A stretch of DNA of 64,000 bases from a virus: positions 1 to 64,000 of the IMG/VR virus record IMGVR_UViG_3300009157_000016. One strand, 5' to 3'. The position numbers and the translations under genes were made by a program. The notes beneath the pieces were generated by a model. The model worked only from the letters and a program-made list of their open reading frames with translations, was not told the origin of the DNA and ran no database searches. Of this stretch, positions 1-24,248 are shown in pieces (positions within the stretch are counted from its first letter, which is position 1; each line of letters starts with the position of its first letter).

Positions 1-311
1 AAGGCCGCCGCCCGTGACTTCCGCACGTAGATGGTGACTTGCTCCTTGACGTGCGGGCCGTTCCCAACTCGCACAACGCCGCCGCCATCCACCCGTATGC
101 CGTATTTCCTATCGGCGTTGTTGCCACGTCCTCGGGAAATGTCCAAGGTCATGACGCACCATCCGATGGAGTCCGTCTTGTAGAAGGTCAACATCCCGTG
201 CTGACCCACATCGTGAACCATCGGGTCCTTCTGGAAGTCCGGGTAGCTCAGGTCAACCGCCAGCACGTTCGGCGGAAGAGCCTGAGGCTTCTTGCCTGTT
301 GCTCTTTTCAT
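1..311 (-). CDS. hypothetical early protein (runs off window start)
   Basis: ATG at 311 preceded by the repeated RBS CAGCAGGAGAGAGAAC; open frame MKRATGKKPQALPPNVLAVDLSYPDF... to the window edge; not in ORF track. Confidence 0.75.
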   Translation of the reverse strand, partial: MKRATGKKPQALPPNVLAVDLSYPDFQKDPMVHDVGQHGMLTFYKTDSIGWCVMTLDISRGRGNNADRKYGIRVDGGGVVRVGNGPHVKEQVTIYVRKSRAAA

Positions 312-390
312 GTTCTCTCTCCTGCTGTGAAGCACTCACGTTGAGCACTTCCCTATCCAGTCACTCTGACTGACTGGATGAGGCTGCGCT
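312..390 (-). repeat. intergenic hairpin+RBS element, copy 1
   Basis: AGCGC-AG-CCUCAUCCAGUCA-GUCAGAG-UGACUGGAUAGGG-AA-GUGCU (344-390) followed by CACAGCAGGAGAGAGAAC-ATG. Confidence 0.9.
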
Positions 391-471
391 CTACTGCTGT
401 AGAAGGTCGCGGATGCCTGCGATGACTGCTAGCGCAATCATCACAAGCAAGAAGACGTGGTCAGGCTGCAT
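391..471 (-). CDS. small hydrophobic peptide (26 aa)
   Basis: MQPDHVFLLVMIALAVIAGIRDLLQQ; overlaps the end of the upstream gene and stops at the hairpin. Confidence 0.45.
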   Translation of the reverse strand: MQPDHVFLLVMIALAVIAGIRDLLQQ

Positions 472-778
472 CCGGCACCGCCTGATACTGCTTCGCGTAT
501 CCAAGTGAATGAAGATTGTGGATGATTGACACCGCCATTTCTTCGTTTGATGGCAGTATCTCGTGCCCAAAGATGGTGTGACGGTAGATGTCAAACGCCT
601 GCAAGAGCACCAGCGCGGCATATTCGTCACTGACCTTCTTCGCCGTGCTGCCAATGCCCATCGCCGTGAAGATGTCCATCCCATTGGGATATTCCGTTGG
701 GTAGCCATCTTCACTGCTGTAGTGGGCGCTCATCTCTTCCGCGATGAGCCGGATGCGCTTTCCTAAATTTGTGTCCAT
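461..778 (-). CDS. hypothetical early protein
   Basis: 105 aa ORF; start preceded by the repeated RBS. Confidence 0.8.
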   Translation of the reverse strand: MDTNLGKRIRLIAEEMSAHYSSEDGYPTEYPNGMDIFTAMGIGSTAKKVSDEYAALVLLQAFDIYRHTIFGHEILPSNEEMAVSIIHNLHSLGYAKQYQAVPDAA

Positions 779-855
779 AGTTCTCTCTCCTGCTGTGAAA
801 TGCTTCCTAGCACTTCCCTATCCAGCCGCTCTGACCGGCTGGATGAGGCTGCGCT
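779..855 (-). repeat. intergenic hairpin+RBS element, copy 2
   Basis: Same as copy 1 with compensatory stem changes (UCA/UGA to CCG/CGG). Confidence 0.9.
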
Positions 856-1309
856 ACACTTGGATGTGGCTGGAAGTATCCAGCCGCTCCATTGGCAAAT
901 AGCTCTCAAGTGCCTCGAAGATCAGGTGATTGTAGAACTGCTCAATGATCTCCGGAGTGGCACCGTTGCCTTCCGTGAGGCCCTGCTGCATGTGCTCGGG
1001 GACATCGTCCCAGAGGAACGTGTCTTCCGTGGCCGCCACTTCGCCATCGCCGGCGCTGGAAGCAAGGGCGTAGGCTTTGCTGTTCCAATCCCAGCTTCCC
1101 ATGATGATCGTAATCGTGAGATCACGCTCATACACCAGCGTCATCGCAACGCCATGCTGCCGGAGTTCCCAGCCCTCGTTGAGAGGCCAGTTTTCCGCCA
1201 GCTTGAACGTCTCATGCTGCGCGTAGTCCTTGCTGTCCATTGTGTAACGGGGGTTGCCCATCCCATCCTGGAGCATGGTCACGCGCGGCAATGTGATCTT
1301 GTCACTCAT
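854..1309 (-). CDS. hypothetical early protein
   Basis: MSDKITL start chosen from the repeated RBS. Confidence 0.8.
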   Translation of the reverse strand: MSDKITLPRVTMLQDGMGNPRYTMDSKDYAQHETFKLAENWPLNEGWELRQHGVAMTLVYERDLTITIIMGSWDWNSKAYALASSAGDGEVAATEDTFLWDDVPEHMQQGLTEGNGATPEIIEQFYNHLIFEALESYLPMERLDTSSHIQV

Positions 1310-1390
1310 AGTTCTCACTCCTGCTGTGAAGTCCTCATCGTGAGCACTTCCCCTACCGGCGCAGTTCCCTGCGCCGGTAATGGCAGCGCT
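1310..1390 (-). repeat. intergenic hairpin+RBS element, copy 3
   Basis: AGCGC...UACCGGCGCAG-GGAA-CUGCGCCGGUA...GUGCU plus CACAGCAGGAGTGAGAACT-ATG. Confidence 0.9.
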
Positions 1391-1882
1391 CTAGCTGACA
1401 ATCATCTTCATGATGACCACATCCAAGCTTGGCTGCGCCTTGTAGAAGACACGCAGCTCGTCGCGTTCATAGGGTGTGGCATCCTCGCCAAGGCGGTTCT
1501 TGACTTCCGCCACAGCCGCTTCTTCGGTGGCATACGTTCCCGTGATGGGTTCCTCCACGGTCACGCCGCCATCCATGCTGACTTCGTAAACCAGCCACAC
1601 GGCCCAGTCTTCGCCGGGCTCCAGCGGGGGCTTGAACGTCCCTTCGCTCCGGTGCGGGTTGAACGGCCCGCCCAGCTTCTGGACGATCTCGCCCAGCCGG
1701 TAGTGGGCTTCCTCATCGCAGTCCAGGAAGCACTCCGTGCCGCCCTCTTCCGGGCTGTTGACATCCAGCGTGCCTCCCGGCGCTAACCAGATGTCTACGC
1801 CGTTGGCCTCCCGCATCAGCCATGACAGCTTCTCACGGAGGGCCTGCTCTTGGGCGTCAGTCAACTCAAGTATCTTGCTCAT
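1391..1882 (-). CDS. hypothetical acidic early protein
   Basis: 163 aa Glu/Asp-rich ORF with the repeated RBS. Confidence 0.8.
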   Translation of the reverse strand: MSKILELTDAQEQALREKLSWLMREANGVDIWLAPGGTLDVNSPEEGGTECFLDCDEEAHYRLGEIVQKLGGPFNPHRSEGTFKPPLEPGEDWAVWLVYEVSMDGGVTVEEPITGTYATEEAAVAEVKNRLGEDATPYERDELRVFYKAQPSLDVVIMKMIVS

Positions 1883-2981: not shown

Positions 2982-3635
2982 TTACCCCCTACCCTTCGCA
3001 GGGCTGCTTCCCCAACGGGCCACTTCCTTTTGCCTCAGCGGCCCATGCCGCTTTGCCTTCTTGGCCTTGGGTTTCTTTTGTGTTAGCTGCTCTTGCAAGT
3101 TGTCAGTGCCTACGCTGCGCATCTTGGGGAGCGCAACGTCACCATGATTCTCATTCATGGGGCCGCACTGGATGAGAAGCCACGTGATCACTTGGGATTG
3201 CAAGGCCACCGGGAGTGTGATCATCCACACCCCCTGACGCAGCCTGCGCCCTGAGATCATGAAGAGGCTATTCACCATGTGAGGCTGGAGCACCGGCTGC
3301 TTGCCCTTCATCTTGTAGCTCCAGCCAGCCGGCCGGCGTACAGTGAAGGGGAGTTTGACGCCACCTCTTTCAAGGCGGTCACCAAACCTCTTGCGAACAG
3401 CCTTGTCATTGAGAGTGACCGGCACATCCCGCGTGGGGTAGTGCGGCTTGCTCATCGCACGCTCATCCTGGCCCTTGGCTATCTCACGGAGCAGTGCCCG
3501 TGCTTCACCAAAGGCTAGGCCCTGCTCACTTAAGAGGAGCGTGCCTGCCGCCTCACGCCGTGCCCGCTGGGATGCGCGCCGCGCTTCCCGTAGGTCATGT
3601 TCAGCATGAAGCAGCTTTCTTACTGCCTTTTCCAT
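2982..3635 (-). CDS. hypothetical basic protein, first gene of the leftward operon
   Basis: ~217 aa ORF; RBS CAGGAGG upstream of ATG 3635. Confidence 0.75.
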   Translation of the reverse strand: MEKAVRKLLHAEHDLREARRASQRARREAAGTLLLSEQGLAFGEARALLREIAKGQDERAMSKPHYPTRDVPVTLNDKAVRKRFGDRLERGGVKLPFTVRRPAGWSYKMKGKQPVLQPHMVNSLFMISGRRLRQGVWMITLPVALQSQVITWLLIQCGPMNENHGDVALPKMRSVGTDNLQEQLTQKKPKAKKAKRHGPLRQKEVARWGSSPAKGRG

Positions 3636-3710
3636 TTCAACCACCTCCTGTGTGATGCCCTACGCATCAGCAAATGGCCTTCTTGGAAGCCACTTGCTGA
3701 TGGGTAGGTG
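3636..3710 (-). repeat. intergenic hairpin+RBS element, copy 7 (divergent)
   Basis: CCUAC-CCAUCAGCAAGUGGCUU...AAGGCCAUUUGCUGAUG-CGUAGG plus CACAGGAGG. Confidence 0.65.
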
Positions 3711-4507
3711 GCAGGCGCGCTTGTGACGGCGCGCCCGCCTACCCAACATTGCAGGAGGAGGAGAACAGCGTGGTGTGTGAGATGGCAGCTACTTGGCCCC
3801 TCACTTGAGATGCCTAAGAACCTTGCAGCATTGGCTGGTTGCTAGCGGCTTCACTTATCTTGCTGCCCTTGCGGCTTGACACCTACGTGCTGAACAGGAT
3901 CACGGGAACTGTTCAGGTTTCAGGGCGTCACTACACTTCCCTTTGCTGGCTTGCCTTGTGGGAGGGCTGCCGGTGCGTCACGTAGGCTGATTGCCGCCAG
4001 CCAGCCCTTGCGGGGCTGGCGGGATGCAAGATGTGGCTGATTGAGCTATGCAGGGTGCTATCATGGGTGCGGGAGTAGAAGCCCACACACCACGCTTGAA
4101 TTTGCCGCCCGGCTAATTGAGATGAGGAGTGCTACCCCTCACCCTAGGCGCGTTGAAAAGCGCCAAGCCTGTGAGATACGGAAGGGTTTTGCCCCCATGC
4201 CCCGCGCCGGTGACCGGCTGCAACACATGGGAAGACTTACTCACTGCCCCCTACAACGGGAGTTACAGGCCAGTGTCACCATCATCAGCGGTTACTCATC
4301 TCACCCCCTTGCCGTCAGGTGCCCCTCAGCAATCAAGATCACGCTAGATGACCCCTTTTGCCCGTGCCCGTGCGCCGCAGCTTAACAGCGGGATGAGAGT
4401 TTCACCAGCAGCGCAGTGGCTACCGGGTTACCCTCATGAGAGTTTGCGGTGCCTCACGGCGCTGCTCATCTCAGATGCCTTCACCTATGCCATAACGCAT
4501 AGCGGCA
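3710..4507 (-). ncRNA. candidate large structured leader/ncRNA (~800 nt)
   Basis: No credible ORF. Perfect 13-bp long-range inverted repeat (3767-3779/4084-4096), 9-bp inverted repeat (4118-4126/4295-4303), several GNRA-capped hairpins; starts just after a sigma70 promoter. Confidence 0.55.
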
Positions 4508-4512
4508 GCTAC

Positions 4513-4541
4513 ACGTTACCATAGGCGTTACACAGTGTCAA
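4513..4541 (-). promoter_or_regulatory. sigma70-type promoter (leftward)
   Basis: TTGACA (4541-4536), 17-bp spacer, TAACGT (4518-4513). Confidence 0.8.
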
Positions 4542-5288
4542 CCTAGCCAAAAGGATAATTTTGAGCCTGTGCAAAAGATAAGGCAGCTCATCCTGCTACC
4601 ATCCTCGCACCCATCTTCATCGCATTCTTCATACCCATCTTATTCGTATATCTTCCCGCCCCTCATAGCAAAGAAGAAAGCAGATTCGAAAACAAATCTA
4701 GCAAACGGGATTAAGAGCAAAACCCCCAACCCCGTCAAACGACATAAGTGCAACAATGCCCGCAAGAAGGGGACCAAACCGCATCCATGTGTAGGAGGAA
4801 TCGAAAACAAATCTAGCAACCAAGGATCAGGAGCTAACTCCTTGTCCAGCCAACGAATAAACAACAAAGCCCCAAGGCCCAAGAGAAGCGGTTCCCAGTG
4901 TCCTAAGATGCAAACGTTCTAGCAGTCCTACGACTCTAAGAAAAGCCCCATCCAGCAACCTTACTCTTCCTACGTCCCACCCCCGTCACATAGAACAGGT
5001 TCCTAGGACAAAGCAAACCGACACCAAGAGGATAATCCTGCCAAAGACACCAAGAATGCAGCTTATGTGGACAGCACTCCCCATAGAGCCCACTGGACCC
5101 ACAATGCAGCTTAAGAAAACAGGAAACCCACGTAGTCCGTTGAAAAAGCCTGTCTAAGGCCGCCTCCCCTCAAGAAGAATTAATCGTGGACTGAGAAGAA
5201 CAGGACAGACTCTATCGTGTTCTTTCTTCCCCACAGTCCCCCATACCACATAAGGGGGTTTGCTAGAAGAACAAGATACTCTTCTTTG

Positions 5289-5416
5289 GCACGACCCGCA
5301 GGAATTATATGCACGACAGGACTCAATTCCCTTGCACGAGCAGGTTCAATTCTTGTGTGCGACGCTGGGTATTTCTTCACACCGACCATGTGGAATAGTG
5401 TAGCACGACTATCAGG
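5289..5416 (+). repeat. imperfect ~22-23 bp tandem repeats GCACGA..CAGG..AATT
   Basis: Units start at 5289, 5311 and 5334; weaker copies at 5359 and 5403. Confidence 0.6.
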
Positions 5417-5531
5417 ATGAAAGTAGATTCGAAAAAATTTCTAGCAACCGGGTTTTCGAACGACGTGGGGAATGCTCTAGCTGTCTTATTCATTGTGCTA
5501 CTTAGGTCGTCGTTCCTTGCGGAAGGGCTCT

Positions 5532-5734
5532 ATCGTCTTCTTTCTTCTTCCGGGGGTCTCTTTCTTCTTCCCCATGCGGACATGCGGGGAAGAAGATGGA
5601 AGGCGATTCGAAAAAATTTCTAGCGAAGGGGGTTTGATAGCGCGGGCCAACTATGAGAAGAAGAGTGCCCAAGAAATGGTTAATCGTCCTCTTTCTTCTT
5701 CCGGGGGTCTCTGTCTGCTTCTTTCTTCTTCCCC
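5532..5734 (+). repeat. pyrimidine-rich direct repeat pair
   Basis: ATCGTC(T/C)TCTTTCTTCTTCCGGGGGTCTCT...TCTTCTTCCCC at ~5532-5573 and ~5683-5734. Confidence 0.8.
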
Positions 5735-5923
5735 GCGCCGTGAAGGGAAGAGGGCGGGAAGAAGAGGGAGGAGATTCGAAAGCGATTATAGGAAGAAGAA
5801 TGAGGAGCGCCGGCGCGAGGAGGCCGGGAAGAGGGGTGCCGGCCGCCGGCCGCAAGGCGGCATGGTTAACGGGAGGTTTATTAACCATATGCCTGAAAGC
5901 GCCGCCGGCATTGTTGTTTTTTG

Positions 5924-5952
5924 TTGCCGTTACGCTGTGTAACGCCCATATT
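5924..5952 (+). promoter_or_regulatory. putative sigma70-type promoter (rightward)
   Basis: TTGCCG, 17-bp spacer, CATATT; the spacer contains the CTGTGTAACGC motif. Confidence 0.5.
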
Positions 5953-6122
5953 GACGTTGCACCGGGCTTGACCGGTCAGGGCGGCCCATGCCGCCCGCTT
6001 CACCGGGCCACGCGCGCTTGACGGCGCTTGCACGTGGTACCGCGGCGGCGCTAAGCGGCCGGGCTCACTTGCCCGTGCCATGCTGCGCAAGGTGACACGG
6101 CGCAAGCCGGTGCCGCGCTATG

Positions 6123-6141
6123 GCGTTACGCTGTGTAACGC
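6123..6141. promoter_or_regulatory. palindromic operator-like site GCGTTAC-N5-GTAACGC
   Basis: Related copies at 4525-4541 (-), 5928-5945 and 6808-6824 share CTGTGTAACGC. Confidence 0.6.
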
Positions 6142-6169
6142 TAGGCGCAAAGCCTGAAAGGTTGAAGCA

Positions 6170-6760
6170 ATGGCAAAGGGTATTGACTACGGTTTCACCG
6201 GCGTGAGCCGCGCGGCGCTTGACTACTGGCCCACGGGCAAGGCGGCGCAAGGCGGCATTGACTGCGGCCCACGGCCCACGCAAGCGCAGCTTGACGCGGC
6301 CGCCGTGCTACTGCCACGGCAGGGTACGGGCAAACACTTGGCGCTTGCCATGTACGGCCGTGAAGGCGGCGCGCTACAGGCGCAAGTGAGCCGCGTGACC
6401 GGTGACACGCAAGTGAACGTACTGCGCAACCTCATTGCCGCCGGCAAGGTTGTGGCGCGGCCGTTGCCGGGTGAGGGCAACGCCAAGCGCTACGCGTACG
6501 CGTTGCCGGGCGCGGCCAAGGGCAAGGGCAAGGGCGCGGCCAAGGTGACCGCCACGCCGGCCGCCAAGGTGACCGCCAAGGGCGCGGCCAAGCCGGCCGC
6601 CAAGGGCAAGGGCAAGGGCAACGTGCCCGCCGTGCCCGCCAAGCCTGACCGCGCGGCGCTTAAGCGCGCGGCTGACGCGCTTTTGGCCAAGCGCAAGCCG
6701 GCCGCCACGGTGGCCGCCACGCCGGCCGCCACGCCGGCCGGTGACAAGCCGGCCGCCTGA
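6170..6760 (+). CDS. putative DNA-binding protein: winged-helix-like domain plus histone-H1-like Ala/Lys/Pro tail
   Basis: 196 aa; GT...EGGA...TG..Q.NVL..L...G core; AAKVTA/KGKGKG repeats in the C-terminal half. Confidence 0.75.
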   Translation: MAKGIDYGFTGVSRAALDYWPTGKAAQGGIDCGPRPTQAQLDAAAVLLPRQGTGKHLALAMYGREGGALQAQVSRVTGDTQVNVLRNLIAAGKVVARPLPGEGNAKRYAYALPGAAKGKGKGAAKVTATPAAKVTAKGAAKPAAKGKGKGNVPAVPAKPDRAALKRAADALLAKRKPAATVAATPAATPAGDKPAA

Positions 6761-6773
6761 TAGCGGCTCACAT

Positions 6774-6801
6774 GCTAGGGCGCGCCACGGCGCGCCCTAG
6801 C
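6774..6801. terminator. GC-rich hairpin after the H1-like gene
   Basis: GCTAGGGCGCGCC-AC-GGCGCGCCCTAGC; no U-tract. Confidence 0.4.
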
Positions 6802-6838
6802 GCCACGGTGACACTGTGTAACGCATGAGGTTGCGGCA

Positions 6839-7027
6839 ATGATTGATGACACAACGCATAGGCAATGGGCCGGCATGAGTGCCGGTCACAAGCTGGTCAG
6901 CGGTACGCGTGACCAGCTAGCGCGCTACGCGCCGCGCAAGCGCTACAGCTTGACGCGCGCTTTTGCGCTGACGTTTGCCGCCGGCTTTGCGCTTTGCGGC
7001 TTTGCGCTTGCGCTTTACGCGCTTTGA
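6839..7027 (+). CDS. small protein with C-terminal transmembrane segment
   Basis: 62 aa; RBS GAGG; hydrophobic C-terminus. Confidence 0.6.
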   Translation: MIDDTTHRQWAGMSAGHKLVSGTRDQLARYAPRKRYSLTRAFALTFAAGFALCGFALALYAL

Positions 7028-7033
7028 TTGCAT

Positions 7034-7067
7034 GGGGGCGGGTACCCGTTTGCGGGTACCCGCCCCC
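7034..7067. terminator. 15-bp perfect hairpin between convergent transcription units
   Basis: GGGGGCGGGTACCCG-TTTG-CGGGTACCCGCCCCC. Confidence 0.65.
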
Positions 7068-7167
7068 CTATTGCCGGGGGGCACCTTCCCTGCGAATTTC
7101 AGCACTCCAATACTCTAAGGAAGCGGTTCTCAGGACACCCCCATGCCCCCACTGAAACCCGCCATAG

Positions 7168-23038: not shown

Positions 23039-23371
23039 ATGAGCTTCCTAACCATGTATCTCAACCAAGTTACGACTTGGTGGAGGAAGACAGGAACAGA
23101 CGGCTTCGGGAACGTGACGTTTGCGCCGCCTGTGCCGCTGCCTTGTCGTTGGGAGGATAGCTCGCGTTTGATTACGAACGCCGAAGGTCAGCAAATCCCG
23201 TCACGGTCGCGTGTTTGGCTGGACAGGGACATCAGCATTGGTGACTGGCTCTATCTTGGGAACAGTTCCACGACTGACCCGCAGGACGTTGACATGGCTT
23301 TCATCGTTCAGGATTTCAGGAAAGTCCCGTCACTGGACGCAACCGACTTCGAGAGATTGGCATATCTCTGA
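23039..23371 (+). CDS. head closure protein
   Basis: TDGFGNVTF...PCRWED; position in the neck module. Confidence 0.7.
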   Translation: MSFLTMYLNQVTTWWRKTGTDGFGNVTFAPPVPLPCRWEDSSRLITNAEGQQIPSRSRVWLDRDISIGDWLYLGNSSTTDPQDVDMAFIVQDFRKVPSLDATDFERLAYL

Positions 23372-23820
23372 TGGCACGGCAGACCCCTTTCGCAACAGGC
23401 AAATCGGGCCGGAAGGATGTCCGTCAGGTAGGCCGTGTTCTCACTGACTACAAACGCTTCGTGCAAGTGGTGGAGGATGAGGCGCTGCGCATCATGGAGG
23501 AAGCTGCCTACATGGTGCTGGAAGCGACTATCCCCCACACACCGCTCCAGTTTGGCGGCTTGCGTGAGAGCGGCCGTGCCTATGCTGAGATGGGTCCCAA
23601 AGGCCCGCGTGGCATCGTTACTTTCGGCGGCGACTCGAACCCGGTGACGCCCACTCCGAACGCTCCTACTGGCATCGTGACGTACGCGCTCAAGGTTCAC
23701 GAAGACCTGGAGCGCACCTACAACGTCGGCGGTCCAAAGTTCTTAGAGAACGGCGGCCTTGACGCCAAACAGGAAGTGGACGAGTTCATTATCAGGGAGC
23801 TCAGGAAGATCAAGCCATGA
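23371..23820 (+). CDS. neck/tail completion protein (HK97 gp10-like)
   Basis: TPLQFGGLRESG...YALKVHE...GPKFLE. Confidence 0.75.
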   Translation: MARQTPFATGKSGRKDVRQVGRVLTDYKRFVQVVEDEALRIMEEAAYMVLEATIPHTPLQFGGLRESGRAYAEMGPKGPRGIVTFGGDSNPVTPTPNAPTGIVTYALKVHEDLERTYNVGGPKFLENGGLDAKQEVDEFIIRELRKIKP

Positions 23821-24248
23821 GCGCGCCGACCATCGATATGAAGAACCTTATGCTGACCGCGCCGGCCTTGGGCACGTTCGGTGAGAATCCCAACAAGGCT
23901 CTTTTCTCAATCTACATCGGCAAGGAGCCTGCGATACCCGACAACACCGTGACTCTCTACGACACGGCGGGTGAGGCACCGAATCCGAAGTGGTTGCTAG
24001 ACTTCCCTCGCTTGCAAGTGCGGGTAAGGGCGAAGGCATACGAGGCCGCGTACAATCAGTGTGAGGCTGTGAAAAGCCGTCTCCTCGGTTTGCCAAGCCA
24101 AGACTTAGGTGGTATCCGTTATATCGGAGTCTATATTGTGATGGACACGGCCTTCTTGATGGTGGATGAGAACCAGCGGTTCATCTTCACCACCACGTAT
24201 CGCATCACAAGGGAGCCGATAGTCGGGCAGCACCGGAGGCCACTGTAA
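23817..24248 (+). CDS. tail terminator protein
   Basis: LYDTAGEAP...PRLQVRVRA...DENQRFIF. Confidence 0.75.
   Translation: MSAPTIDMKNLMLTAPALGTFGENPNKALFSIYIGKEPAIPDNTVTLYDTAGEAPNPKWLLDFPRLQVRVRAKAYEAAYNQCEAVKSRLLGLPSQDLGGIRYIGVYIVMDTAFLMVDENQRFIFTTTYRITREPIVGQHRRPL

Follow-up and report, generated by a model that had tools for sequence, protein, structure and literature searches.

The GOLLD and ROOL families of large RNAs are defined by conserved sequence together with covarying structure across many genomes. Among early-operon leaders, the lambda N leader, transcribed from pL, carries structure beside the ribosome-binding site (RBS) of the first cistron that limits translation, and host RNase III acts on the leader, which is ~220 nt long and contains a nut site (boxA/boxB) bound by N. 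The T7 early transcript is polycistronic, with RNase III hairpin sites between cistrons and a leader fragment that is removed at the first site; the leader is ~400 nt long, has three promoters (A1-A3) and contains, to our knowledge, no anti-Shine-Dalgarno (anti-SD) tract. PMC8708148 mentions that lambda N mRNA is regulated by RNase III and cites a map of the T7 early region (reference 45). [quoted passage not shown]

We compared with these systems a locus in a 64,000-nt stretch of DNA (the window) that comprises bases 1-64000 of a 108,377-bp IMG/VR virus record from an uncultivated siphophage, G000. A sequence-only reading had proposed that positions 3710-4507 encode one ~800-nt structured non-coding RNA, in the manner of GOLLD and ROOL, as the first product of a strong leftward promoter. 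The likeness to those families lies in a large, non-coding stretch within a phage genome, but the present locus matches no Rfam model, and its conservation in relatives does not go beyond a 15-nt tract. On balance we favour reading positions 3636-4507 (minus strand) as the ~870-nt untranslated leader of a leftward early operon, with a conserved SD-masking module in its last ~130 nt. So read, the locus resembles the lambda N leader in being an untranslated early-operon leader with structure, here predicted, beside the RBS of the first cistron; it differs in its ~870-nt length and in its masking partner, a dedicated CU-rich tract ~100-215 nt upstream of the SD, and we recognised no boxA/boxB consensus by eye in the G000 leader. 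As in the T7 early region, each early gene has a hairpin before it, here within a repeated hairpin-plus-RBS unit, but no sequence relationship exists between the two. With the T5 iss region it shares a kilobase-scale, ORF-free character, nested inverted repeats and palindromes, and a position adjoining small early genes, but the region is not conserved in relatives and has no direct repeats inside 3710-4507.

Genomic setting and related phages

The record encodes an HK97-type capsid, a long tape measure, DNA polymerase A, SbcCD, terminase and portal, and no close relative of it was found among isolated phages. Although rated 100% complete, the record is incomplete on the left, because a metagenome contig from the same phage (L040, 4020 nt, 99.9% identical over window 1-1818) extends 2.2 kb beyond position 1. 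Small minus-strand genes form an array to the left of the putative leader (Table 1), and in front of every one stand a hairpin and an RBS that is nearly identical from gene to gene. The hairpin-plus-RBS unit was found at several array genes (324-2557, 103680-107114 and also 88851), and some 30 kb of small minus-strand genes separate the portal (92.3-93.9 kb) from the protease/capsid (16.6-19.8 kb). To the right are an AT-rich repeat core and then a divergent H1-like gene at 6170. No replication origin could be located by GC skew, which tracks gene orientation only, and no tRNA or tmRNA was found in the window.

The first gene of the array belongs to no Pfam or PHROG family, and a homologue search found no match to it, related phages included. 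Another early protein (1391-1882, minus strand) is conserved, with invariant DIWL..GG and DCDEEAH motifs and ~10 homologues in metagenome protein sets, but likewise has no Pfam or PHROG family; a search with this protein of the metagenome, viral and genome collections retrieved only related phage G001 and the window's own sample. Protein search also shows closer relatives, with P0003 at 83% identity.

Capsid searches led to four related records, two of which, G001 and G002, are complete, with lengths of ~103-106 kb. A fifth relative, G006, was found by scanning viral contigs for the 15-nt CU tract, the other matches being mostly unrelated or sense-strand RBSs. Our comparisons cover five phages, namely G000, G001, G002, G004 and G006. 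Core proteins are 30-67% identical to those of relatives, and G001 is syntenic with G000 in reverse orientation.

Table 1. Coordinates of features at the leftward early locus of G000 (window positions)
Feature	Position	Strand	Remarks
Putative leftward early promoter	4513..4541	-	TTGACA (4541-4536), 17-nt spacer, TAACGT (4518-4513); read from sequence
5' part of leader	4097..4507	-	transcript G+U-rich, several local hairpins; without conservation in relatives
Nested inverted-repeat domain, 330 nt	3767..4096		closed by perfect 13-bp helix 3767-3779/4084-4096
CU-rich anti-Shine-Dalgarno tract GUUCUCCUCCUCCUG, 13-15 nt	about 3752..3766	-	shared with related phages
GC-rich 11-bp hairpin in predicted SD-sequestering junction	3710..3739	-	minimum-energy and centroid folds
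21-bp hairpin with C-C mismatch ('hairpin copy 7' of the sequence-only reading)	3659..3708	-	two G-U pairs on minus strand
Shine-Dalgarno CAGGAGG of first early gene	3644..3650	-	pairs with CU tract in predicted fold
First gene of leftward early array	2982..3635	-	217 aa from ATG 3635

Coding potential and conservation

The stretch 3645-5492 is non-coding on either strand. Stop codons of each of the three kinds interrupt every one of the six frames, no SD-led ORF of at least 15 codons occurs on the minus strand of 3710-4507, and a codon-usage score based on the phage's own usage is negative for every ORF in the stretch and positive for the neighbouring genes. ORFs inside the stretch have no Pfam match, and we reject recoded or hidden coding on these four grounds. 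The six-frame stops, the SD-led ORF scan and the codon scores thus agree with the original observation that no credible ORF lies between the promoter and the first gene.

Across 3770-4507, blastn and tblastx found nothing alignable in G001, G002 or G004, G006 having been read at the CU-tract locus only, and no homologue of the region was found in the phage collection. The CU tract is the sole leader sequence that G000 has in common with its relatives, being present in G001, G002 and G004 and, with one mismatch, in G006. An ORF-free stretch of at least 750 nt does occupy the equivalent place in G000, G001, G002 and G004; in G006 the ORF-free length is at least 450 nt, or less than 350 nt above the CU tract if ORF 724-1161 is real. 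These equivalent stretches fold at z-scores from +1.0 to -3.1 and the relatives' leaders have no Rfam match, leaving the bulk of 3770-4507 without conserved sequence or structure in the syntenic leaders of relatives (alignments to G001, G002 and G004). Inside the large non-coding region of G001 is an AT-rich ORF of 137 aa (L010, 98850-99263, minus strand) with no Pfam match, which recalls the HNH insertion that splits the repeat regions of T5.

Lack of conservation in relatives is what would be expected if the stretch consisted of decayed former genes or neutral filler, serving only to keep the promoter at a distance from the first gene. The A/T skew of 3600-4000, which is like that of the neighbouring minus-strand genes, points the same way, as does the fast turnover of early regions, where even the first gene has no homologue in relatives. 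However, tblastx shows no trace of coding similarity to relatives, the complete avoidance of CGA/TCG described below shows that the stretch is under selection, and the ORF-free stretch of at least 750 nt recurs at the same position in four phages, so that we regard decay or filler as highly unlikely.

Folding of the whole stretch

The helices and hairpins quoted in support of a structured RNA are real. Both the 13-bp perfect pair listed in Table 1 and the 9-bp pair (4118-4126/4295-4303) are exact, and the named hairpins are present, including GCCAGCCC..GGGCUGGC at 4000-4020, GCC-GUGA-GGC, GG-GUAA-CC and CUGAACAG/CUGUUCAG at 3890-3916. Statistically they carry modest weight, at most a little above chance. 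The 9-bp helix has a stronger competitor in predicted folds, a local hairpin at 4118-4143; perfect inverted repeats of at least 13 bp within 800 nt number 10 in 108 kb, some of them within genes; and GNRA-capped stems show no significant enrichment on the minus strand (3 observed against 1.3 expected, with 60 of 500 shuffles reaching 3).

The whole 798 nt folds with z = -2.15 on the minus strand and -2.06 on the plus strand, and 2 of 100 dinucleotide shuffles fold equally well. This is marginally better than shuffles and inside the genome background, for which 20 random 330-nt windows gave a mean z of -0.8 (sd 1.3, minimum -3.2). Folds of tiled 150-nt windows resolve discrete stable hairpins, and the stretches between them do not fold better than shuffles, or even fold worse. 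The mean z of these windows is lower for the minus than for the plus strand. In the 5' part of the leader, where 150-nt windows range from +0.95 to -2.55, the overall z is -1.96 (3 of 100 shuffles equally good).

No Rfam covariance model matched at gathering score anywhere in the window, and none for GOLLD (RF01998), ROOL (RF03087) or other large RNAs matched at E <= 5 over 3500-5600 under permissive filters; the check for a known large-RNA family was therefore negative. At 4648-4737 (+), in a stretch that overlaps the first GATTCGAAAA repeat, there is a weak match to RT-19 RNA (E = 0.016); its score is 26 bits where the gathering threshold is 78, and it is probably due to chance.

The stretch might nonetheless be a large structured RNA specific to its lineage, a ~800-nt leader cut at the hairpin before the first gene that persists stably and has an independent function, such as carrying the anti-RBS tract. 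The recurrence of a long ORF-free leader in relatives argues for this, as do the many stable hairpins (the 330-nt domain reaching z = -4.1 and the 5' 411 nt the value given above), the more negative average of the minus-strand 150-nt windows, and the strong complementarity of the CU tract to downstream RBSs that we describe below. Against it stand the lack of an Rfam match, the lack of sequence conservation of 3770-4507 in relatives that keep the CU tract (G001, G002 and G004 aligned), the z-scores of the equivalent stretches in relatives, which run from +1.0 to -3.1, and a whole-region z of about -2.1 that is equal on both strands and within the genome background; moreover, the best domain is more stable as antisense and the minus strand has no GNRA excess. 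We consider such an RNA unlikely. As a single ~800-nt structured RNA like GOLLD or ROOL, the stretch falls short on background-level folding, on conservation of its bulk and on Rfam matching.

The inverted-repeat domain and DNA-level signals

Within the 13-bp closing helix, the 330-nt domain contains helices of 7, 9 and 5 bp and two 8-bp hairpins. It folds with z = -4.08 on the minus strand and -4.00 on the plus strand, with none of 100 shuffles equally good, and 86 Watson-Crick pairs are common to both strands. The plus (antisense) strand is the more stable, at -154.5 versus -136.6 kcal/mol, and carries 12 G-U pairs versus 1 on the minus strand; base composition may explain this difference in stability. 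Whatever its cause, nothing in the domain points to selection acting on the leftward RNA. We rejected a MITE or other mobile inverted-repeat element at 3767-4096 because there are no further copies with the same terminal repeats: a search for both 13-nt termini with a spacer of 290-318 nt gave no match in the viral and genome contig collections, and the G000 genome has no other copy of the domain.

The trinucleotides CGA/TCG are absent from 3455-4605 (1150 nt, ~38 expected) and from 5816-7093 (1277 nt, 42 expected). No other run of this kind in the genome is as long, and the TCGA-bearing repeat core lies between the two. Over 3455-4605 the absence takes in both coding and non-coding DNA and is symmetric between the strands, which indicates selection on DNA and not on RNA. 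GGA/TCC and AGA/TCT are likewise missing over ~5830-7114. In G001 a GAC/GTC-free run (100272-100978) covers the end of that phage's own leader and its first genes, and in G002 trinucleotides containing GA are avoided at 23075-23940, over the H1-like gene.

The AT-rich core that adjoins the leader holds five GATTCGAAA repeats and four operator-like palindromes. The palindrome, GCGTTAC-N5-GTAACGC (the CTGTGTAACGC motif), occurs at 4524-4541 (-), 5925-5946 (+), 6121-6142 and 6804-6825 (+), two of the four copies being in the spacers of putative divergent early promoters. A second perfect 13-bp long-range inverted repeat (5584-5596/5724-5736), with a GGGGAAGAAGATG-type purine tract, also lies inside this core.

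These features raise the possibility of a cis element acting as DNA, in which inverted repeats and motif-free composition would serve protein binding, replication initiation, packaging or DNA entry, as in T5. The strand symmetry of the 330-nt domain, with its 86 shared pairs and equal z, agrees with this, and so do the loss of CGA/TCG from coding and non-coding DNA alike in both runs, the adjoining repeats and palindromes, and the T5 precedent of an untranslated repeat region beside pre-early genes. By contrast, 3710-4507 contains no direct repeats or repeated binding motifs; the T5 region is highly conserved among T5-like phages and the present one is not conserved in its relatives; no T5-type phage appears among the best 25 capsid matches listed, and the window has no tRNA genes, which leaves no sign of T5 kinship; and the 3' module clearly behaves as RNA. 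As an explanation of the stretch we find a DNA-level element rather unlikely, though it deserves some credence.

The putative promoter

Of the 'strong leftward promoter', the TTGACA and TAACGT boxes are present, but a sigma-70 consensus scan made no call at TTGACA-17-TAACGT (4541-4513) and the promoter is sub-consensus. Its spacer carries one copy of the operator-like motif, CTGTGTAACGCC (4535-4524). Because the scan did not call it, we can only infer the 5' end of the transcript, placing the transcription start at ~4500-4508. The original observation thus stands for non-coding status, helices and hairpins, and is weakened by the modest statistical weight of the latter and by a promoter that the scan did not call.

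A conserved module before the first early gene

The order of elements is the same in all five phages: after the CU tract come a gap of 4-12 nt, one to three strong hairpins, and then the SD and start codon of the first early gene, although the sequences of the intervening hairpins are unrelated between phages. The distance from tract to SD ranges from ~100 nt in G000 to 215 nt in G001. In G000 the minus strand of 3626-3772 folds at -76.8 kcal/mol (z = -7.0), and the core of the pairing between tract and SD comprises 7 bp, CCUCCUG:CAGGAGG, plus extensions. The minimum-energy structure contains this pairing in G000 (z = -7.0), G001 (z = -7.0) and G002 (z = -4.75), in each of which the pairing probability of the SD is 1.0 and the summed probability of tract-to-SD pairs amounts to 6.5-9 bp (~9 bp in G000). 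One compensatory change is seen among the five phages, CCUCCUG:CAGGAGG in G000 and G001 versus CCUCCUA:UAGGAGG in G002, a replacement of G:C by A:U at the helix end. In G004 and G006 the CU tract is predicted to be paired elsewhere or open, with the SD in a local hairpin instead, so sequestration in cis may not be the conserved function of the tract.

In five of five phages the sense strand of the module is the more stable, by 6-22 kcal/mol, and it has more G-U pairs than the antisense strand. This bias, the opposite of that in the 330-nt domain, is our best evidence for leftward transcription and for action as RNA. Because its 3' end has a conserved, sense-favouring element at the RNA level, we take it as very probable that the stretch is transcribed and makes up the 5' part of the operon.

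Hairpin stems before the first cistron measure 21 bp in G000 and 15-22 bp in G001, G002, G004 and G006. The hairpin at 3659-3708 has the double-stranded stem of ~20 bp or longer before a cistron that is an RNase III-type trait, making it a candidate RNase III-type processing site. Release of the leader by cleavage at this hairpin, as originally suggested, is plausible by analogy with T7 and lambda.

In the leader model that we favour, the CU tract would pair with the SD of the first gene, and the resulting helix would close a three-way junction containing the hairpins at 3710-3739 and 3659-3708. With its SD held in this helix, the first cistron would be translationally masked as transcribed. 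Unmasking would require the junction to be opened or cut, for which RNase III-type cleavage of the long hairpin seems the most likely route; such a cut would detach the leader too. The remaining ~740 nt would be a fast-evolving spacer with local hairpins, including the lineage-specific 330-nt domain, and the z of -4 of that domain is unaccounted for by the 'spacer' reading.

The CU tract is also complementary to the extended RBSs of downstream cassettes, with a mean of -22.6 kcal/mol against -12.5 +/- 4 for control RBSs, and this complementarity is kept in the related phages. A more elaborate scheme would have the leader processed to a stable RNA whose CU tract masks the first cistron in cis and, as the RNA accumulates, pairs in trans with the near-identical extended RBS (CAGGAG[A/G]...GAAC) of each downstream cassette, so forming an RNA timer that shuts off early translation, with the ~700-nt body as a stabilising scaffold free to drift in sequence. 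We offer this timer as speculation and think it quite improbable.

Implications

The main practical result of this analysis is negative, in that the stretch is no new GOLLD- or ROOL-class RNA. It also indicates that ORF-free, hairpin-rich stretches of GC-rich phage DNA need a check against genome background and a comparative check before a structured RNA is called. As regards the untranslated leader itself, the anti-SD tract matches the shared RBS of a long early array, which hints at coordinated translational control, and if the module works as proposed it would be a conserved RNA switch standing at the start of the early programme in an unstudied group of ~100-kb environmental siphophages.
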